From a virus, in the IMG/VR virus record IMGVR_UViG_3300027927_000003, positions 1 through 64,000 of that record: a DNA stretch of 64,000 nucleotides; one strand, written 5' to 3'. This document shows positions 1,516 through 30,267 of the stretch, piece after piece. The first letter of the stretch is position 1, and each line of letters opens with the position of its first letter. The position numbers were made by a program, and so were the translations under genes. Below the pieces are notes generated by a model. The model was given only the letters and a program-made list of their open reading frames with translations, ran no database searches and was not told the DNA's origin.

Positions 1516-2700
1516 TCACCTGCCAGCGGGGGCCTTCGCCTTGACCTCGTGCTTGGCACGGATCCGGTCGGTCTCGTCCCGCAGGCCGCGCTTCCACTGC
1601 GTGTTCTCCACCTTGATGGTGTTCCGCTGAGTGACCAGCGCCATGTTGTTGCTGTCGTTGCGCTCCATCCAGCGGACCGGGTCCTTCAGGTACTCGTAGA
1701 CCGCCTTGGCCCGAGCGAGCCAGTAGGAGTACTGCGTGAGGTCGGTGTCTACGTACCGGTTCATCACAGCCGTGAAGTAGTCCCTGGCCAAGTCGTCGGG
1801 CAAGACCGCGACCTGCTCATCGGTCAGCGTCACGTCCATGCCCTCACGGTCCTGCTCAGCCAGAACGTCTTCGAGCTTCTCACCGGGGTAGACCCAAGCG
1901 GTCCTGCCGTCGTCGGTGACCACGAAGGTGGGCTCGCCCTCCTTGGGCTTGGTCTCCACGGTGACCGTAGCCACCGGCTCTTCGACGGTGGTGTCAACGT
2001 CGGGAGAGGTTGCCACCTTGACCGTGGTCGGCTCGGTCTCAACCTTGACCTCGGTCGGCTCTCCCGCAGCCTCGTAGACGATGACCTCATCGTCCTGCTG
2101 CTTCTTGGCCTTCTTGGCCTTCTTGGCCTTCTTGCCGCGAGTACCCTCCTGGCTCATCTTCTTGGCCACCGGGTGGACGTTGCTGTCCCACTTGTCGTAG
2201 GCCCAGGCCATCCCGTAGACCAGACCACCGATGAACAGCCAGCCACCGACACCGATGCTGGTCACGGCTGCCCAGACGCTCTTCAGCATCCAGGAGCCTG
2301 AGCGGAACACGTACCCGACTGCGCGGAGCGCGTAGTGCGGGACGGCCTTGGCGAACTTGACCATGCCACCCCACATCCACTTGGCCTTGCCAGAGGACCA
2401 GTTCCAGATCCGCCGCATCGAACGACGCGACCAAGCACCTGCACGCTTGGCCTGCTTGACCGTGTAGTTCTTGGTCTTGACCGCAGCGTTCTTGGTCTTC
2501 TTCGCTGCGCTCTTGGTGTTCTTCTTGACGCTCTTGGTCGCCTTGCGGACGACCTTGCGCACCTTGAACGTGGTCTTCTTCCACGTCGGGCGCTTGTTGT
2601 TCTTCTTGCCCTTCTTGGGCTTGACCTTCTCCACACGTACGACAGGCTCGGCCTCGACCGTAACCTCGACGGTGGGAGCCTCAACCGTGGTAGTACTCAC
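1516..2700 (-). CDS. Lys-rich membrane protein (394 aa)
   Basis: GTG start at 2700 with GGAAGGAAG upstream. Strongly basic N-terminal region with KKTK/AAKK-type repeats, hydrophobic segment VGGWLFIGGLVYGMAWAY, then a T/V/E-rich linker. Confidence 0.8.
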   Translation of the reverse strand: MSTTTVEAPTVEVTVEAEPVVRVEKVKPKKGKKNNKRPTWKKTTFKVRKVVRKATKSVKKNTKSAAKKTKNAAVKTKNYTVKQAKRAGAWSRRSMRRIWNWSSGKAKWMWGGMVKFAKAVPHYALRAVGYVFRSGSWMLKSVWAAVTSIGVGGWLFIGGLVYGMAWAYDKWDSNVHPVAKKMSQEGTRGKKAKKAKKAKKQQDDEVIVYEAAGEPTEVKVETEPTTVKVATSPDVDTTVEEPVATVTVETKPKEGEPTFVVTDDGRTAWVYPGEKLEDVLAEQDREGMDVTLTDEQVAVLPDDLARDYFTAVMNRYVDTDLTQYSYWLARAKAVYEYLKDPVRWMERNDSNNMALVTQRNTIKVENTQWKRGLRDETDRIRAKHEVKAKAPAGR

Positions 2701-2790
2701 GGCTGATCACTTCCTTCCTGACTGGATGGGACTGATTGATTTCTTCGCATGTTCAGGCGTTCGCCCCAGGGCTGCTTGGTCCCCTGTAAC

Positions 2791-2828
2791 GCAGAAAGGC
2801 CCCAGAGAGCCGGTATCTCTCTGGGGCC
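2791..2828 (-). terminator. intrinsic terminator hairpin inside a leader
   Basis: Perfect 12-bp stem GGCCCCAGAGAG/CTCTCTGGGGCC (2798-2809 / 2817-2828) with a 7-nt loop, followed on the minus strand by TTTCTGC. Confidence 0.6.
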
Positions 2829-2873
2829 TTCCGTGTGGCGTGCGAAGACATAGCTCCGCTACCAACTACGTTC

Positions 2874-2903
2874 ATTCTATCACAAACGCAGTTTTAGGGT
2901 CAA
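2874..2903 (-). promoter_or_regulatory. sigma-A-type promoter with extended -10
   Basis: Minus strand reads TTGACC (2903-2898), 18 nt, then TGaTAGAAT (TAGAAT = 2879-2874). The -35 overlaps the stop codon of the upstream gene. Confidence 0.5.
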
Positions 2904-3652
2904 GATCCACTGTGGAAGAAGATCTCAACCCCATCAACATCCTCCGTAGCGCCGCAGTTGAGGCACCGAAGAAGAGTCTCCCGCTTCTCGGTCTCGCTGT
3001 GCTGCGATGCTGCGTAGTAGGCGTTGGGGTCTTTCCCCTCCTTGTCGCGGAACCGCCCCACGGAGTGGAGCGAGCGATGGGAGTAAGAGACATCCAATAC
3101 CTGCGCCAGTGATCCGCAACCCCCACATTTGAGAGGGTTGGGCATGAAGTCCTCATTTGCCTCGTTGAGGCCGATCACGACTTCGTTGTACCGCTGAGCG
3201 ATCCAAGCGGGAACGGGATTGGGAACCTCACCGTTCTTGATCCACTCGAAGAACTCAGAGAACTGAGCCGGGGATAGCTTGACCAACTTGGATCGAGCGA
3301 ACCACCCGAGCTCACCTTGGAGCTGGTCTGGCGTGTACCAGGTACCAAGGACGAAGCTGTTGAGCACCCGCTCTTCCCAGTCAGGGAAGTCCTCGGCGTA
3401 CTCGTTCGGGTCCAGAAGCCTCGCGGCGCAGATCACGCTGCCACCGCCGTCTTCAGAGTTGGAGACGGAGACAAAGTCTCCCGGACCCAGGTCGAACTGC
3501 TCTTGGCTTGGCCTAACTTGTTCGGCCACCGCGTCATGCGCGTTACCAGTGAGCATCGACCTACTGATCATTTTGCGGAGGAGTTCCTGTATCTGCTCAG
3601 GGACATCGTCTCCTCCAAACGCGAAGTCGCCTGAGTTGTCATCATTTGCCAT
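2900..3652 (-). CDS. hypothetical protein (250 aa), possible C-terminal zinc ribbon
   Basis: Long ORF with high GC3. Paired Cys motifs CGGCG ... CLNCG near the C-terminus. Confidence 0.8.
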   Translation of the reverse strand: MANDDNSGDFAFGGDDVPEQIQELLRKMISRSMLTGNAHDAVAEQVRPSQEQFDLGPGDFVSVSNSEDGGGSVICAARLLDPNEYAEDFPDWEERVLNSFVLGTWYTPDQLQGELGWFARSKLVKLSPAQFSEFFEWIKNGEVPNPVPAWIAQRYNEVVIGLNEANEDFMPNPLKCGGCGSLAQVLDVSYSHRSLHSVGRFRDKEGKDPNAYYAASQHSETEKRETLLRCLNCGATEDVDGVEIFFHSGS

Positions 3653-6154: not shown

Positions 6155-6185
6155 ATAGAAGAAGACCATGGTCGGGCGACCATGG
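6155..6185 (-). terminator. intrinsic terminator-like hairpin
   Basis: CCATGGTC/GACCATGG 8-bp stem (6166-6173 / 6178-6185), followed on the minus strand by TCTTCTTCT. Confidence 0.45.
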
Positions 6186-6206
6186 CCTGAGCGAAAGCTC
6201 AAAGCC

Positions 6207-6234
6207 GAGCACGGTTTCAGGGGATCCCGTGCTC
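6207..6234 (-). terminator. hairpin downstream of the 83-aa gene
   Basis: GAGCACGG/CCGTGCTC 8-bp stem, followed on the minus strand by GGCTTTGAGCTTTC. Confidence 0.35.
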
Positions 6235-6243
6235 GACGTTCAA

Positions 6244-6495
6244 CTACCGCTTCGGTTCTACTACCTTGGTTCGGATCGGACCGAACGGTGAGTTCCGGAT
6301 CGCCCTCTCCCGAGTGAGGTCGATGTAGGGAGTGAACTCGCAGACCATGCACCTGGTGTGACTCAGGTTCCAGTCGTGGCCTTGCTTGCGACAGTCGTGC
6401 TCAACCGACTTAAGCCCCCGGACCATGAGGGCCACCATCGGAATGAACACGGCCATGAACGCGATGAAGCCGATGAGGATCTGGGTCTCAGTCAT
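6244..6495 (-). CDS. small membrane protein (83 aa)
   Basis: N-terminal transmembrane segment ILIGFIAFMAVFIPMVALMV. 8-nt overlap with the upstream gene. Confidence 0.7.
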   Translation of the reverse strand: MTETQILIGFIAFMAVFIPMVALMVRGLKSVEHDCRKQGHDWNLSHTRCMVCEFTPYIDLTRERAIRNSPFGPIRTKVVEPKR

Positions 6496-7183: not shown

Positions 7184-7215
7184 AGAAAAGCCCCTCAGCC
7201 GAATTGCTGAGGGGC
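7184..7215 (-). terminator. rho-independent terminator
   Basis: GCCCCTCAGC/GCTGAGGGGC 10-bp stem (7190-7199 / 7206-7215) with a 6-nt loop, followed on the minus strand by CTTTTCTG. Confidence 0.7.
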
Positions 7216-7223
7216 TGGTACTG

Positions 7224-7388
7224 CTAGGACGTGTGCAACAGACCGTAGTGCTGGGCGACCAGGACGTTGAGCAGAGCGGCTCTAGAGATGCCGATCTTCT
7301 TCGCCTCGTCGTCTAACTTCTCGGCCATCTCTGGGCGCATCCTCATGTTGAAGTTCACCCAGTCTTTCTCTTCCTCGTCCTCGTTCAC
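7224..7388 (-). CDS. ribbon-helix-helix (CopG/Arc-like) DNA-binding protein (54 aa; alternative start 7418)
   Basis: VNFNMRMRPEMAEKLDDEAKKIGISRAALLNVLVAQHYG fits a beta-strand plus two helices, the RHH pattern. GTG at 7388 has a GGAGGAG SD and a GTGA overlap with the upstream stop. Confidence 0.65.
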   Translation of the reverse strand: MNEDEEEKDWVNFNMRMRPEMAEKLDDEAKKIGISRAALLNVLVAQHYGLLHTS

Positions 7389-7888
7389 GGCGTCTCCTCC
7401 AGGAGACACTGAAGCCACACCAGGTCCTGGGCCGGGAACCGGAGCACGACGATGGGACCACGGTCGTCCCAGTCGTCCTCGTCGTACTCGATGTACCAGG
7501 TGCCGAAGTCACGCTCGACCCACTCTTCGACACCATCGCGCTTGGAGTTCTTCCGGTAGACCGGGGCGGTCAGGATCTTGTTGATCGTGACCTGCCGCTT
7601 GTACGGGTAGTCGAGCTTGTTGTTCTCCCAGTGCTCCAGCAAGTCGTCCCACGCCTTGACGTGGGACATCATCACGTAGCCACCAGGAGGAACCTCGTTG
7701 CCGTCGTAGTCGGTGGTCCAGTCCTCGTCTCCCTGGCAGGAGAAGAAGGTGTGGATACCGCGCTCCCAGAGCAACTCCAGGGTTCGCTTGATCGCGGCGT
7801 CCACCGTGACCAGATAACCCTTCTCGTTGCCATCGGGGTTGTAGAACGCTCGCCACTGCCGGTGGCTGGTAGTGCTCTTGGTCTCCAT
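7385..7888 (-). CDS. hypothetical protein (167 aa)
   Basis: ATG at 7888 (METKSTTSHR...), preceded by GGAAGGAGA. Acidic and Trp-rich. Confidence 0.75.
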   Translation of the reverse strand: METKSTTSHRQWRAFYNPDGNEKGYLVTVDAAIKRTLELLWERGIHTFFSCQGDEDWTTDYDGNEVPPGGYVMMSHVKAWDDLLEHWENNKLDYPYKRQVTINKILTAPVYRKNSKRDGVEEWVERDFGTWYIEYDEDDWDDRGPIVVLRFPAQDLVWLQCLLEETP

Positions 7889-7917
7889 GTGGTCTCCTTC
7901 CACATGTCCCCGTACAT

Positions 7918-7962
7918 AGAAAAAGCCCCTGACCAGGTACGGGGGATGACCTGATCAGGGGC
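7918..7962 (-). terminator. rho-independent terminator inside a leader
   Basis: 13-bp stem (7925-7937 / 7950-7962), with one G.U pair when read on the minus strand, followed by CTTTTTCT. Confidence 0.75.
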
Positions 7963-8008
7963 GTCAGTGGGGGGCGGAGAAGGCGTACTTCCCCTACCCA
8001 CTGCATTC

Positions 8009-8037
8009 AGTGTATCACAAACACACTGATAGCACAA
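8009..8037 (-). promoter_or_regulatory. sigma-A-type promoter with extended -10
   Basis: Minus strand reads TTGTGC (8037-8032), 17 nt, then TGaTACACT (TACACT = 8014-8009). The spacer GTGTTTGTGA is shared with the promoter at 2874-2903. Confidence 0.5.
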
Positions 8038-8088
8038 CTACCTCCTCTCGTCATGAGAGGAGAGACCCGAGCGATACTCGGTTACTCA

Positions 8089-8169
8089 CTACCGCTTGGG
8101 AAGACCCATGTAGATCGCCCAAGCCGCTAGAACGAGCCAGATGATGCTCATGACGAACGTGAGGATCAC
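8089..8169 (-). CDS. micro-ORF, hydrophobic 26-aa peptide
   Basis: GTG at 8169 overlaps the upstream stop (GTGA). Peptide is MILTFVMSIIWLVLAAWAIYMGLPKR. Confidence 0.3.
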   Translation of the reverse strand: MILTFVMSIIWLVLAAWAIYMGLPKR

Positions 8170-8938: not shown

Positions 8939-8967
8939 TTGGGTCTCCCTTCCAAAGCATGTGGACA

Positions 8968-8998
8968 TGAAAAAACCCCGAAGCTCTTAACTTCGGGG
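8968..8998 (-). terminator. rho-independent terminator upstream of the first leftward gene
   Basis: CCCCGAAG/CTTCGGGG stem (8976-8983 / 8991-8998) with a 7-nt loop, followed on the minus strand by TTTTTT. Confidence 0.75.
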
Positions 8999-9326
8999 CT
9001 AGTTGGCGGACAGACTCTTCGCCAGAGGGCTATTAACCTCGTCTGGGTACTCCTCTCCCGTCAACTAAGTTAAGTATAACATAAACACTCTAAACACGCA
9101 ACAACCCGAGAGGTTGCTCATTGGGTTGAGCGTTAGTCTCTCGGGTTCTCGATCACCAGGCTAGGGAATGCGTCTCGCTCCTATTACGAGGAGGTCCTAG
9201 ACGTTCTCCTACTGGTAAGCAGTGTTTCCTTGAAGCAGTAGATGGCGTAGTCACATCCTCTTGGGATGTGAACTACCGCGCTGTTCAACTGATTCTCCAG
9301 TCGTAACTGGGGTACTTCCTGCTTGC
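8999..9326 (-). ncRNA. long untranslated leader or candidate ncRNA from the distal leftward promoter
   Basis: No credible ORF or SD on the minus strand. Several stems: CACATCC/GGATGTG, AACCCGAGAG/CTCTCGGGTT, CTCCT/AGGAG, CTACTG/CAGTAG. Confidence 0.3.
9073..9101 (-). promoter_or_regulatory. sigma-A-type promoter with extended -10 (proximal)
   Basis: Minus strand reads TTGCGT (9101-9096), 17 nt, then TGtTATACT (TATACT = 9078-9073). Confidence 0.55.
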
Positions 9327-9332
9327 GTAATC

Positions 9333-9361
9333 ACTATAACACACTCTAAACACTCTTGCAA
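9333..9361 (-). promoter_or_regulatory. sigma-A-type promoter with extended -10 (distal)
   Basis: Minus strand reads TTGCAA (9361-9356), 17 nt, then TGtTATAGT (TATAGT = 9338-9333). The spacer GAGTGTTTAGAGTGTGT nearly duplicates that of the proximal promoter. Confidence 0.55.
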
Positions 9362-9761
9362 CTTATTGGCTGAACATCCTTCGCTCCGCTGGGGCTCCGC
9401 TCCGGATGTTCTCCTCAGTGGCTCTTATTGGCGTGTAGACATAGGCGTACCCTTTATATGGAGCCTATGGGTCGCTAATCCTGTAAGGACTTAGGCGCTG
9501 GAGTAGCCATTACGAACGCCGGTTTCCCACACAACGGTTAGTTGATATCCCAGGGCCGTGTCCTGCTCACCTGGATGAGAGTGTGGTGTCTGCTCTACCT
9601 GCTGGGAGCCTCCTGAAACTGTGTTGTGCCACGACATCCATGCGACGGATTGAGGAAGAACTTGCCATAGAGCTTGACTCTCGTCAACCCTCTCCTACAA
9701 GATGGTCTTGCCTGAGACTGTCTGCCACGACAATCTCCTTGCTGGCCCGCGAAACCAGCGT

Positions 9762-9808
9762 GAACCCCCGGTTGACCGCCCCTTTGGTCCCGGGGGTTCT
9801 TTCTGTCT
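9762..9808 (+). terminator. intrinsic terminator-like hairpin ahead of the first rightward gene
   Basis: GAACCCCCGG/CCGGGGGTTC 10-bp stem (9762-9771 / 9790-9799) with an 18-nt loop, followed by TTTCTGTCT. Confidence 0.5.
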
Positions 9809-9851
9809 ACGAGTCTTGTCAAGATCTACCCGAGCTGGGGTGGATGGTCGT

Positions 9852-14402: not shown

Positions 14403-14441
14403 GAGGGTGACCCTGTGTGACCGTCCCATGGGGTCACCCTC
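14403..14441 (+). terminator. hairpin after the SSB-like gene
   Basis: GAGGGTGACCC/GGGTCACCCTC 11-bp stem with a 17-nt loop. Only a weak T tract (TTCC) follows. Confidence 0.4.
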
Positions 14442-14446
14442 TTCCA

Positions 14447-14527
14447 GCCTCGTAGGCCCCAAGGTGGGGCAGCGGCCTGTAAAGCCGTCGTCTTCGGACA
14501 TGGGTGGTTCGATTCCACCACGGGGCA
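14447..14527 (+). tRNA. tRNA-Tyr(GTA): tRNA-Tyr (anticodon GTA), class II with long variable arm
   Basis: Hand-folded cloverleaf. Acceptor GCCTCGT/ACGGGGC (7 bp, one G.U), D stem GCCC/GGGC, anticodon stem GCGGC/GCCGT with loop CTGTAAA (GTA at 14479-14481). Variable arm of 14 nt with GTC-TTCG-GAC; T arm GGTGG-TTCGATT-CCACC. Atypical A at position 8 and a short D loop. Confidence 0.75.
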
Positions 14528-14570
14528 CATCCCTATTCTCTTGACTACAAACATGGGGTAAGGTCAGCTC

Positions 14571-22238: not shown

Positions 22239-22940
22239 ATGAGTAACGTAATCCGGCTGAACAACGGCGGCTCCATCCAGATCCGCACCGGTGTTCTTCA
22301 GGGGATCGGACCTGTTGGCCCGCCTGGACCTACCGGACCCCAAGGCATCGAAGGTCCTACTGGCCCTCAGGGTGAGACCGGTCCTGTTGGCGCGATCCTC
22401 CAGTACTTAACTAAGGCCAGGATTAGCTCTGGGATTAACCTCCCACCGGACACTGACACACTGGTCAGCTTCGGAACGGTTGAGATAGATGATCTTTCCG
22501 CCGCCAAGTCCGCCACCAACTTTCAGGTCACAGATCCTGGCGACTACCAGTTCACCGCCTGGGTGCGATTCGACCTTCCTATCTCTGCTGGTGACAGCTC
22601 TCGTAGTCTTTGGGTTCAGTCTTCCGCTGGTGGCCTCCTGGCTCGTAACTCTGTGGATGCCATCGCAGACGAGCCGACCTACCTCCAGGTTGTGTGGACG
22701 GACCGGCTCACCAACACCGAGACGCTGAACATCTACGCACGGCACTCGGATGACTCTGACGTGGTGATCTCAGAGGGTCGGCTCTCTATCGTGCGCGTAG
22801 GCGCAGGCAACCCTGGTCCTGCTGGCCCTCAGGGTCCACAGGGGCCTGTCGGACCTCAGGGACCTGCTGGACCTCAGGGCGAGCCTGGCTCGGCTGGTAC
22901 TGGATACGCCACCTACGGTGACCTCAACGCTGGAGCATAA
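22239..22940 (+). CDS. collagen-like minor tail/fibre protein
   Basis: G-X-Y runs at both ends (GPVGPPGPTGPQGIEGPTGPQGETGPVG and [31 protein letters not shown]) flank a globular domain of about 140 aa. Confidence 0.85.
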   Translation: MSNVIRLNNGGSIQIRTGVLQGIGPVGPPGPTGPQGIEGPTGPQGETGPVGAILQYLTKARISSGINLPPDTDTLVSFGTVEIDDLSAAKSATNFQVTDPGDYQFTAWVRFDLPISAGDSSRSLWVQSSAGGLLARNSVDAIADEPTYLQVVWTDRLTNTETLNIYARHSDDSDVVISEGRLSIVRVGAGNPGPAGPQGPQGPVGPQGPAGPQGEPGSAGTGYATYGDLNAGA

Positions 22941-28215: not shown

Positions 28216-28586
28216 TCCCAGTCAGTCGCAACCTGACGCTGTACCAGGGTGACACCTACTCGTTCACCTTCCGGCTCAGAGACCTCTCGCCCCAGGGAGA
28301 CCCTGGTAACTACGTGGATCTGACTGGTGTGACTGCCAAGGCTCAGATCCGGCAGAGCGAGACCACCAGTGCGGTGGCTGCGGAGTTCACCGCCACGATT
28401 CCCGACCAGACGGTGGCTGAGGACACCGGTCGGGTGGTCCTCTCCCTGACTCCAGCAGAGACCGCTGCGCTGAACCTGACCAACAACGCTGGGGTCTGGG
28501 ACGTACAGCTCACCTTCCCAGACGGCACGATCAAGACCTACCTGCGCGGGGCCATCCGAGTGATCAGGGAGGTCACTCGTGTCTAG
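28212..28586 (+). CDS. small beta-rich virion-associated protein, paralog of 21849..22235
   Basis: 124 aa, GTGA-coupled. See 21849..22235. Confidence 0.75.
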   Translation: MIPVSRNLTLYQGDTYSFTFRLRDLSPQGDPGNYVDLTGVTAKAQIRQSETTSAVAAEFTATIPDQTVAEDTGRVVLSLTPAETAALNLTNNAGVWDVQLTFPDGTIKTYLRGAIRVIREVTRV

Positions 28587-30267
28587 CCGTAACTACGCTA
28601 TTGAACTCACCACCGACGAGGGTGGGGTGATCCTGGAGAACACTCATCCCGTCGATGTGGTCGAGGTTTACATCGATGGTCCCTACGGTGGCGAGATCCT
28701 AGAGGTCTTGGAGGCAGGTCCTCAGGGTCCTGCTGGTGCCGATGGCCCTGCTGGACCACAGGGTGAGCAGGGCATCCCTGGTGAACAAGGGCCACAGGGC
28801 ATCCCTGGCGAGCAGGGCCTCCAGGGTGATCCAGGGCCTGGTCTGCCTACTGGTGGTGCGGTAGGTCAGATTCCGATCAAGGCCAGTACGTCGGACTTCG
28901 ACGTGGCGTGGGACGACATCCCGCCGAGCTTGTTCCGAGGAGAGTGGGTAGCCGCATCCTCACGGCTGGTCGATCAGCCGATGACTAGCAACACCGCGCC
29001 TGCGCCATACGTGGCGAGTACCTCTGGGTCAACGGGGTCCGCGTTCAGGCTGTTCGACCAGTCCTCACAACAATGGCAATGGTCGTATGGCGCGGACACC
29101 GCATCAGCGACCATCTCACTTGGATCAGCGAAGACTCTGACTCGCTACGAGATCCAGATTGGTTCCACCAACGAAGCCCCGGTGTCCTGGGTCGTGGCAG
29201 GGTCCTCGAATGGATCGACCTGGACTGATGTCGATTCCCGCAGCAATGTCTCATGGAACAGCAATAACGAGACACGCTCGTTTGCTGTCACCAGCCCAGT
29301 GGCTTACAGCTACTACCGACTCACAGCGACGTTCACTACGGGAACGATGTGGCGGACGGTGCTGGAATGGATTCTCTGGAACGAGAGCAACGAGCCGTAC
29401 ATGGGAGGCGAGTACGTCACTCACCAGGGTCGGCTGTGGAAGTCGAACTCGGACAACAACCCAAGCACCCCTGGCACGTCGGGCTGGACTGAGATTCCGC
29501 TTGTCAACACGGCTGCGAACACCACGTTTGCTCCGACCGGAGCCATCGCTGCGACCACCGTTCAGGCAGCCCTCGCTGAGCTTGACAGCGAGAAGTCGAG
29601 TACGACGCACAAGCACCCCTCGTCACTAACTCCCGGCCTGTTTCGTGGCGTATGGATAGCAGGAGCAACCCGGCTTGTGGATCAGCCGATGACGGGCAAC
29701 ACGTCGCCAGCGCCTTATGTCGCGAGCACTAGCGCTGCTTACTCTGGCGGCGGATATGCCCTGTTCCAGCACGCCGACTACTGGCAGTTTTCCTCAAATA
29801 ACGTACCGGCGTGGGCGTCAATCGACCTCGGCACCGCGAAGACCCTTGACCGCTATGCGCTCAACATTGGAGGGCAGGGGCTCGCTGCGTTCCAGGTTCA
29901 GGGCTCTAACGACGGCGCGACTTGGACTACGGTGGACTCTCGAACGGGTTCCTACGCCAGCAGTACGTACTCGTTCACGCTTGCTACTCCTGCCACCTAC
30001 CGTCGCTTCCGTCTCTACATCACTCAGGTAACCGGCTCTTGGCCGGTTATCAACGAGTGGGAGCTGTGGAACGACGTTGACAATCCCTACATGACCGGCG
30101 AGTACGTCGTTCATGATGGCTACTTGTGGAAGTCTGACACCGATACTAACGGCAATACACCTGGAGTCTCAGGCTGGACCTTGGTTCCGCTCCGCAGCCC
30201 TCACGGAACCGCGCTTCCTGTTGACCCACTGCCGTACAAGTACCAGCTCTTCGTCAAGCACGTCTAA
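28579..30267 (+). CDS. collagen-like fibre protein with two tandem carbohydrate-binding-type modules
   Basis: G-X-Y run [42 protein letters not shown], then two homologous ~200-aa repeats. Each ends with Y-M-(G/T)-GEYV-x-H-x-G-x-LWKS ... PG-x-SGWT, a CBM5/12-like aromatic motif. Confidence 0.85.

Follow-up and report, generated by a model that had tools for sequence, protein, structure and literature searches.

Promoter-hairpin-terminator cassettes in the leftward arm of an uncultured phage as candidate premature-termination modules of the 5' untranslated region

The stretch of viral DNA analyzed here, the first 64,000 nucleotides (nt) of IMG/VR record IMGVR_UViG_3300027927_000003 (the window), carries on its minus strand a promoter aimed directly at an intrinsic terminator at 7918..8037 (cassette A), and a similar arrangement at 2791..2903 (cassette B). 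The initial annotation, made from the sequence alone, had described the two as twin copies of a conserved promoter-leader-terminator cassette and had compared their logic to that of lambda nut/N, HK022 put and Q-type antitermination, or of short regulatory RNAs. The cassettes proved to be real and conserved, and they represent a variant, from a poorly known clade, of promoter/terminator cassettes already described in phages; a new antitermination system was not demonstrated. The reading given here, which we consider to have about an even chance of being correct, is that each cassette would act as a modular premature-termination unit of the 5' untranslated region (5'UTR), composed of a promoter, a 5'-terminal hairpin and a terminator that would also end the transcripts of the upstream operon.

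The order of promoter, leader, terminator, Shine-Dalgarno (SD) sequence and start codon was confirmed for both cassettes, each element being present on the minus strand at the position originally assigned to it. The elements are as follows, where P1 denotes the leader helix that begins at the predicted transcription start (+1) and dG the folding free energy.

8041..8063, minus: hairpin (T)CTCCTCTC-atgac-GAGAGGAG(G), read from the sequence, directly upstream of the -35 of promoter A
8032..8037, minus: promoter A -35, TTGTGC, followed by a 17-nt GT-rich spacer
8009..8017, minus: promoter A extended -10, TGATACACT, one of the 5 TGNTANNNT sites
7966..8002, minus: P1 of cassette A, from the predicted +1 at A8002, AGUGGG-UA-GGGGAAG-uacgc-CUUCUCC-gccc-CCCACU
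7918..7962, minus: intrinsic terminator of cassette A, with a 14-15-bp GC-rich stem (7962..7925) and the T-run TTTTTCT (7924..7918); hairpin dG -28.0
7912..7919, minus: post-terminator box of cassette A, CTATGTAC, a variant of (G/T)CATG(T/C)CC
2874..2903, minus: promoter B, TTGACC (2903..2898), 18 nt, TGATAGAAT (2882..2874)
2833..2867, minus: P1 of cassette B, from the predicted +1 at A2867, GUUGGU-a-GCGGAG-cuaugu-CUUCGC-ac-GCCAcAC
2788..2832, minus: intrinsic terminator of cassette B, stem 2832..2794, core 2828..2798, weak T-run TTTCTGCGTT; hairpin dG -32.1

The identity of the two cassette strings, estimated by hand as about three quarters, was 35/46 (76%), divided between the promoter part (14/17) and the transcribed part (21/29). 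A degenerate 32-nt consensus of A and B matched only these two sites in the window, even with 3 mismatches, while shuffled sequences gave an expectation of 0.00. The flanking genes are indeed unrelated, with no blastp match below E = 0.6. The small hairpins that had been noticed, GGGGAAG/CTTCTCC and GCGGAG/CTTCGC, exist and form the inner part of P1. The description of a conserved leader holds in that the conservation is real, but about a third of the conserved block consists of the promoter spacer and the -10. The leader length given as 75-90 nt agrees with the distance from +1 to the end of the T-run, 86 nt in A and 80 nt in B, but the distance from +1 to the start codon is longer, 114 and 167 nt, respectively. 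The whole leaders folded with dG -46.6 (z = -6.2) for A and dG -43.7 (z = -5.8) for B in RNAfold. No open reading frame (ORF) with an SD and a start codon that could encode a leader peptide was found in the leaders of A, B or the third cassette, D, described below, and the ATG of the post-T-run box is in frame with the downstream gene in some cassettes only.

The term twin copy could not be retained, as A and B belong to a family of four promoters in the window (A, B, C and D). The window, with a G+C content of 59.5%, has a divergent layout. The leftward arm of small genes occupies the minus strand from about 9500 to 1, and the long rightward arm encodes DnaB, a primase, tRNA-Tyr and a DnaE-type polymerase first, followed by portal, Mu-F-like, tape-measure and collagen-like proteins. 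All four promoters lie on the minus strand of the left arm and have the form TTGnnn-17/18-TGnTAnnnT, with a TTG -35 and a GT-rich spacer in each. Promoters C and D stand in tandem within the divergent intergenic region, and the leader of C, approximately 260 nt long, passes through promoter D.

9333..9361, minus: promoter C, TTGCAA-17-TGTTATAGT, the upstream partner of the tandem pair with promoter D (9101..9073)
8963..9145, minus: cassette D, with an upstream hairpin CCCGAGAG..CTCTCGGG (9145..9105), -35 TTGCGT (9101..9096) and extended -10 TGTTATACT (9081..9073)
9066..9001, minus: P1 of cassette D, which starts with AGTTGACGGGAGAGG and encloses a 40-nt insert
9000..8970, minus: terminator (9000..8974) and T-run of cassette D, followed by the box CATGTCC (8969..8963)

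The motif TGNTANNNT was present at 5 sites in the 64 kb, compared to 39.7 +/- 6.3 expected from dinucleotide shuffles, and four of the five sites are promoters A to D. The sequence therefore suggests that the genome avoids this strong promoter motif except at the four cassette promoters.

Relatives were recovered by several routes. With DnaB as the anchor, two syntenic viral contigs were found, L001 (DnaB 72%) and L002 (DnaB 61%). A leader-motif scan identified a third phage, P3 (loci L086, L176, L183 and L190; DnaE 69%, DnaB 67%), and a scan of metagenomes added a 77-kb version of the L001 phage and the fragment L196. The real matches of the motif scans of viral, metagenome and genome collections came only from the L001 and P3 phages and L196; those in the genome collection were attributable to chance and gave no clue to the host. 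Scans anchored on the proteins encoded after cassettes A and B retrieved no relatives. Five further loci (L207, L208, L210, L211 and L212) were obtained by homolog searches with the zinc-ribbon (Zn-ribbon) protein encoded upstream of cassette B and by contig look-ups. The window had no DNA-level match to GenBank phages, either by megablast or by sensitive blastn of cassette D; judged by DnaE, its closest relatives in culture are phages of Gordonia and Brevibacterium, at approximately 36% identity. The replication (right) arm is 50-72% identical at the protein level between relatives; the left arm shares almost no genes. In L001, L002 and P3 the extended -10 promoters are likewise confined to the left-arm strand, with 3-4 per genome and a tandem pair at the head of the arm. 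Hairpins comparable to the one next to promoter A abut the -35 of promoter D and of its L001 and P3 orthologs. As a separate matter, a phage-encoded RNA polymerase was considered as an explanation of the promoter asymmetry, but none was found among the large right-arm proteins. It was also observed that the block GAGACTAACGCTCAACCCAATGAGnAACCTCT at 9107-9138 (minus), which abuts the -35 of promoter D, is the same in P3 save for one variable position (n); no viral contig other than the window and P3 carries it.

Nine cassettes, termed B-type, lie between the same two genes in the window, L001, L196, P3, L207, L208 and L210-L212, where the flanking proteins are 20-45% identical. At all nine orthologous sites the extended -10 is separated by 6 nt from a hairpin that opens at or close to +1, and a T-run terminator stands between this hairpin and the next gene. 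The box (G/T)CATG(T/C)CC follows the T-run directly in most B-type cassettes, and in the collection as a whole it was found in win_D, L1_b, L1_c, L2_b, P3_x, P3_y, L208, L210, L211 and L212. The sequence of P1 has been wholly turned over in L208 and L210-L212 despite the orthologous position. An ortholog of the 394-aa (amino acid) protein encoded after cassette B follows P3_x at 28% identity, and in L1_d, L196, L207 and L208 the gene behind the cassette starts similarly (MST../MAT..). Downstream of the B-type cassette the operon comprises genes for a lysine-rich protein, an AAA ATPase and an SPFH protein; in the relatives the AAA ATPase is the next gene. In the orthologous cassette of L207, the stretch that separates P1 from the terminator is occupied by a tRNA-His(GTG) gene, identified by ARAGORN at 2691-2764. 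Nature therefore makes use of the promoter-to-terminator interval to encode a small stable RNA. This gives indirect support to the short regulatory RNA named as an option in the initial annotation.

The Zn-ribbon gene is the sole left-arm gene kept in all relatives, with orthologs in L001, L196, P3, L207, L208 and L210-L212, and in the window its stop codon falls inside the -35 of promoter B.

2900..3652, minus: Cys4 zinc-ribbon protein, 250 aa, always directly upstream of the B-type cassette

The protein appears to represent a widespread uncharacterized phage family, with 95 representative clusters in metagenomes. Residues C176, C179, C230, C233 and W117 are invariant across 74 family sequences. 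An earlier structural model was too low in confidence, so that a second, confident AF2 model (pLDDT 87.9) was used for the structure search; it consists of an SH3-like barrel and a long beta-hairpin Cys4 zinc ribbon. There was no match to the PDB or to BFVD, the viral structure library, at E <= 0.001, Q proteins included. The protein belongs to no Pfam or PHROG family, and a sequence search of the PDB was empty. A few family members gave weak, scattered Pfam matches to the zinc ribbons of TFIIS, TFIIB and Ogr/Delta. By the confident model, which had no significant structural match, the protein is not Q-like.

The geometry of the leader is the same in the window and its relatives, and the arrangement was seen again in 19 cassettes that were folded, from 10 contigs of related uncultured phages. 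The leader motif always starts 6 nt past the -10, and the 7th nucleotide was taken as +1, the start being placed by its distance from the -10. The first paired nucleotide of P1 is at position 1-5 in 16/16 leaders folded with RNAfold, leaving 0-4 unpaired nucleotides at the predicted 5' end. P1 encloses a short loop or an insert of 20-60 nt, and the terminator hairpin begins 0-5 nt after P1 (L196 has an extra hairpin between the two). The main terminator lies 30-120 nt downstream of the predicted start, and the units from +1 to the terminator, as predicted from the sequence of 16 cassettes, are 63-157 nt long and upstream of the first gene. All of the first 11 leaders folded (11/11) gave a 5'-terminal helix and a terminator, with z = -3.5 to -10.5 relative to dinucleotide shuffles; the five leaders found later have the same fold. 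Variable inserts occur inside or after P1 in win_D, L1_b, P3_y, L196 and L2_c. The P1 loops of the window are unlike one another (UACGC in A, CUAUGU in B and the insert of 40 nt in D), while the short-P1 orthologs share a purine-rich loop of 8-9 nt (AGARGUGYG).

The cassettes win_D, L1_b, L1_c, P3_x and P3_y open with AGTTGACGGGAGAGG and have an identical 15-nt 5' arm, from which L1_d and L196 are one base off; win_A and win_B carry the variants AGTGGGTAGGGGAAG and AGTTGGTAGCGGAGC, respectively. The reverse complement of the 5' arm sits just ahead of the terminator. Covariation between the two arms was scored with an explicit pair table and a swap test, with the family consensus as the reference, rather than by counting pairs in an alignment, because the variable inserts keep the 3' arms out of register in MAFFT. 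The following compensatory changes were found.

P1 5'-arm position 4: U-A to G-C in win_A
P1 5'-arm position 6: A-U to G-C in win_A and win_B
P1 5'-arm position 6: A-U to U-A in L207
P1 5'-arm position 10: G-C to C-G in win_B
P1 5'-arm position 11: A-U to G-C in win_B
P1 5'-arm position 14: G-C to A-U in win_A

The pair table also contained 9 G-U pairs. When the 3' arms of 12 cassettes were swapped, the cassette's own 3' arm ranked first for the diverged win_A, L208 and L2_b. A search of Rfam, at gathering and at permissive thresholds, returned nothing relevant.

Taken together, these elements suggest how the module could operate. Host RNA polymerase with the primary sigma factor would initiate at a very strong promoter, characterized by the TTG -35, the GT-rich spacer and the extended -10. 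The transcript would start 7 nt past the -10, and its first nucleotides would fold into P1, with the intrinsic terminator coming immediately afterward. Those polymerases that halt at the terminator would release an RNA of 65-160 nt with a hairpin at both ends. Partial read-through would yield the downstream mRNA with a structured 5' end, of a kind known to guard against 5'-end-dependent decay. Stem-loops at the 5' terminus stabilize mRNA, and RppH needs unpaired 5' nucleotides (reviewed in PMC3997798). The same terminator, lying downstream of the promoter, would also stop transcripts arriving from the upstream gene block. The module would therefore be a terminator, a promoter and an attenuator at once, and would set the dose of the early, mostly orphan genes. 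As in the relative that harbors tRNA-His, it could also carry a small stable RNA as cargo.

The cassette probably also serves as a recombination joint, since paralogous and orthologous copies flank non-homologous genes, as in the cassettes of T4-type phages discussed below. Two signs of shuffling were found. The first gene after the D-type cassette of P3 is a homolog (weak, 27%) of the gene that follows cassette A in the window, and the window contains a copy of the element that has no promoter.

6160..6244, minus: promoter-less cassette-like element, AGTTGAACG..., with the hairpin CGAGCACGG/CCGTGCTCG and a terminator (6188..6163), then CTATGTG

Neither TGNTANNNT nor TANNNT is present at the proper distance from this element, and from its sequence it resembles a decayed cassette.

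Several observations weigh against premature termination as the full explanation. The evidence is entirely from sequence, and the transcription start is placed by the -10 distance alone. Summed over the cassettes, P1 is only modestly more stable on the sense strand (-252 kcal/mol) than on the antisense strand (-228 kcal/mol). A strong terminator immediately after a strong promoter would be wasteful unless the short RNA or conditional read-through matters. Plain attenuation also leaves unexplained why 7 cassettes from 4 contigs (window, L001, P3 and L196) share an invariant 15-nt 5' arm, AGTTGACGGGAGARG, while its 3' partner drifts, and why the short-P1 loops and the post-T-run box are conserved. 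The invariant arm, the loops and the box suggest an additional sequence-specific partner or a constraint at the level of DNA. For this reason put- or nut-like antitermination stays a minority hypothesis.

The possibility was considered that P1 is a cis-acting RNA signal for processive antitermination which, either alone (put-like) or together with a phage or host protein (nut/N-like), overcomes the adjacent terminator and later ones in the left arm, so that mainly short RNAs are made early and the full operons are expressed later. We regard this as unlikely, although the architecture that had prompted the idea, a promoter aimed at a terminator, is real and recurs in relatives with compensatory changes in the leader. 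A conserved RNA element opens each early transcript with a terminator directly behind it, and further co-directional terminators that lack a promoter occur at 7216..7189, at 6188..6163 and in L193. The 5' arm is conserved beyond what pairing needs, as is the purine-rich loop of the short-P1 leaders. A riboswitch-type alternative fold was examined and rejected: when the 3' arm of the terminator was removed, P1 persisted and the 5' arm of the terminator was free of upstream pairing in 9/10 leaders. Since there is no self-contained antiterminator fold, any regulation would need a trans-acting factor or a direct action on the polymerase. However, membership in the N, put or Q classes was not borne out. 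A boxA (YGCTCTTWA-like, <=1 mismatch) was found in 0/16 leaders. No N-like ORF lies between the promoter and the first terminator of A, B or D, and the interval between C and D contains only unconserved ORFs of 16-34 codons. The P1 motif is not universal, as win_A, win_B, L208, L210-L212 and L2_b/c keep the hairpin alone, and there is no Rfam family match. A conserved small basic protein was not found; conservation among the neighbors is confined to the Zn-ribbon protein, which has no match to known antiterminators. The lambda nut/N and Q analogies also fail for want of a pause element, a Q-like neighbor, a late operon and antiterminator pairing. A bolder version, which we consider doubtful, is that the invariant 5' arm AGUUGACGGGAGARG at +1 constitutes a new promoter-linked RNA signal in phages of high-GC Gram-positive hosts that sets the fate of the polymerase at the terminator, directly in a put-like manner or through a phage or host factor, possibly the novel-fold Zn-ribbon protein. 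If so, the cassettes carrying it would be a timed switch from short early RNAs to full expression of the early operons.

It is similarly doubtful that the short terminated transcripts are themselves the functional product, acting as regulators, as decoys for RNases or RNA-binding proteins or as carriers of cargo, with downstream expression as a leaky by-product. The interval between promoter and terminator has the form of a complete small-RNA gene with hairpins at both ends, it is used for a tRNA in L207, and the inserts inside or after P1 vary among five cassettes; comparable abundant RNAs derived from 5'UTRs are documented in Pseudomonas phages (PMC10914365). Nevertheless, no convincing trans target was present in the window, where the best non-self matches of the window leaders were 11-14 nt, the level expected by chance. 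Most of the conserved 5' arm is engaged in base pairs, an unusual state for a seed region, and the complete turnover of the leaders between orthologs (L208, L210-L212) argues against a conserved trans target. Control at the level of DNA, in which AGTTGAC...GTCAACT would provide operator half-sites at +1 for a repressor of the early promoters, such as the candidate ribbon-helix-helix (RHH) protein encoded at 7224..7418, and the RNA hairpin would be incidental, is very improbable. The position of the motif is fixed relative to the -10, the early arm does contain this sub-threshold RHH ORF, and a TTGAC-N4-GTCAA palindrome is found at 9676-9689 in the rightward control region. However, the spacing between the arms varies from ~9 to ~70 nt, and the diverged cassettes change both arms in a compensatory manner and use G-U pairs that matter only in RNA. 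Furthermore, the palindrome is not conserved in relatives, and the RHH matches fall under the Pfam thresholds. The least credible of the alternatives is Q-type late control, with the Zn-ribbon protein as a Q-like factor that loads on a paused, promoter-proximal polymerase. The order of regulator gene, promoter, short terminated RNA and operon is lambda-like and is kept in 9 contigs, and the protein has four invariant cysteines and, in a few family members, the weak zinc-ribbon matches to TFIIS, TFIIB and Ogr/Delta. This is offset by the lack of any significant PDB or viral match to the structural model, Q proteins included, and by the absence of a -10-like TANNNT within +1..+30 in 14/16 leaders, among them the tested window leaders A, B and D. 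Moreover, the genes after the B-type cassette (the lysine-rich protein, AAA ATPase and SPFH protein) are not late, virion or lysis genes, and cassettes A and D share the design with no Zn-ribbon gene upstream.

The premature-termination module favored here has close counterparts among known systems. The PeSL (promoter-early stem-loop) cassettes of T4-type phages are composite promoter/stem-loop elements on the flanks of ORFans, through which modules are shuffled (Arbiol et al. 2010, PMC2839356; Comeau et al. 2014, PMC4122927). The present cassettes are likewise repeated composites of a consensus host sigma-70-type early promoter and a terminator-like stem-loop; the window has 4 of them, and L001, L002 and P3 have 3-4 each. 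They are intergenic, stand before orphan genes in a hyperplastic arm and flank non-homologous genes, and promoters A and D each have an accessory hairpin directly against the -35. In contrast, the stem-loop of a PeSL lies inside the promoter, ahead of it or immediately before the start site; here the main terminator comes after the predicted start, behind a transcribed 5'-terminal hairpin, and the promoter's own transcripts would therefore meet it. PeSLs belong to T4-like myoviruses of Gram-negative bacteria, whereas the window represents a high-GC tailed phage with a tape-measure protein and a Mu-type portal, whose nearest cultured relatives are actinobacteriophages; here, moreover, recombination at the cassettes is deduced from sequence.

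In virulent Pseudomonas phages, terminators inside 5'UTRs give rise to an abundant short RNA or to a read-through mRNA (Putzeys et al. 2024, PMC10914365). The layout is the same, with a promoter followed by a terminator within 250 nt, upstream of the first gene; in the cassettes, too, this would yield one of two products sharing a 5' end, a short structured RNA or a read-through mRNA. Conservation among related phages applies to some of the Pseudomonas elements as well. The Pseudomonas cases, however, were defined experimentally, and their description did not group them into a repeated family with a common leader, while the family described here is a predicted one, distinguished by its fixed geometry, covarying 5' hairpin and conserved post-T-run box. 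The position of P1 also recalls the 5' mRNA stabilizers, 5'-terminal stem-loops and SD-like elements such as ompA, aprE, STAB-SD and the SP82 polypurine element (PMC3997798). The hairpin is 0-4 nt from the predicted 5' end, and the purine-rich GGGAGARG resembles the phage SD sequences GGAAGGAG and AGGGAGAC. Unlike the cassettes, the known stabilizers have no terminator behind them; in the cassettes the SD-like tract is often base-paired, and a stabilizing effect is presumed.

The resemblance to the lambdoid systems is more limited. At lambda pR', the short 6S RNA ending at tR' is made unless the polymerase is modified by Q. A promoter aimed at a nearby terminator and an RNA hairpin near the start of the early transcripts recall the lambda Q and nut/N systems, and a conserved gene is directly upstream of promoter B, as with Q. 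However, a boxA, a boxB loop of the GNRA type, an N-like gene close to the promoter and a -10-like pause element are all missing from the cassettes. In addition, the gene ahead of promoter B does not encode a Q-like protein, and the operon behind this promoter is not a late one. The put sites of HK022 consist of two stem-loops that act on the polymerase and are not themselves terminators. They share with the cassettes a structured RNA right after the early promoters, more than one copy per genome and covariation between copies, but in the cassettes a canonical U-run terminator forms the second stem-loop, and not all members conserve the sequence of P1.

The cassettes provide a conserved, sequence-defined regulatory module for an uncultured phage clade in which nearly all of the early genes are orphans. 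They offer strong candidates for the early promoters, transcript 5' ends and terminators, and they suggest how the dose of the early genes is set and how blocks of genes are exchanged. Because the module is small (~150 bp), self-contained and accepts RNA cargo in nature, as with the tRNA, it can be tested directly by reporter assays and in vitro transcription, and it could find use in high-GC Gram-positive bacteria as a part for expressing small RNAs. The invariant first 15 transcribed nucleotides, the post-T-run box and the Zn-ribbon neighbor are leads to a new transcription or RNA-binding factor.

The left-arm genes near the cassettes are largely without relatives. Ten left-arm proteins that were scanned belong to no Pfam family and gave one marginal PHROG match only (E = 0.0011). 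The genes that follow cassettes A and B, and a terminator inside the arm, are listed below.

7385..7888, minus: first gene after cassette A, 167 aa, orphan, with SD GGAAGGAG (7901..7894) and ATG at 7888
1516..2700, minus: gene after cassette B, 394 aa, with lysine-rich repeats and a hydrophobic core, GTG at 2700
7189..7216, minus: additional intrinsic terminator, co-directional and without a promoter of its own

The sole match to the 167-aa protein among 5.8 billion proteins was the protein itself, on a contig of 76,253 bp. The small ORF at 7224..7418 (minus), which ends just ahead of the terminator at 7216..7189, gave sub-threshold matches to RHH_1 (E = 0.024) and RHH_3 (E = 0.042) and may encode a DNA-binding regulator of the early arm. 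A 20-codon hydrophobic ORF (MSIIWLVLAAWAIYMGLPKR) is located at 8090-8151 (minus), between promoter A and the gene ending at 8166.

The divergent intergenic region contains a noncoding block of ~125 nt (9435-9560) that is ~85-90% identical in P3 and partly kept in L001. It is not a tRNA, its alifold signal is weak, and it could be an origin, a rightward control region or a non-coding RNA. On the plus strand, a terminator-like hairpin followed by TTCTTTCTGTC was found at 9778-9797; downstream of it, near 9846, begins the first conserved gene of the rightward arm. This arm, too, may therefore open with a terminated leader.

Farther along the rightward arm, tRNA-Tyr(GTA) is encoded at 14447-14528 (plus) directly before dnaE, with an 11-bp hairpin GAGGGTGACCC..GGGTCACCCTC ahead of it (region 14404-14528). 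This tRNA gene has no cassette-type promoter and is not within a cassette; the equivalent site in L001 is occupied by tRNA-Asn. Seven right-arm genes, encoding proteins of ~90 to 830 aa, have the N-terminal peptide M(x)SAFG(V/I)(E/D)HG..(F/I)SK in common.

35661, 38302, 45667, 46023, 50860, 51138 and 53253, plus: starts of the genes with this peptide

From its sequence, the peptide looks like a targeting or propeptide tag shared by proteins of the virion region. Collagen-like Gly-X-Y repeats are present in two right-arm proteins, encoded at 22239-22940 and 28579-30267 (plus), and in one of them the repeats are fused to F5/8 type C (discoidin) domains; both proteins probably serve as tail fibers or in receptor binding.

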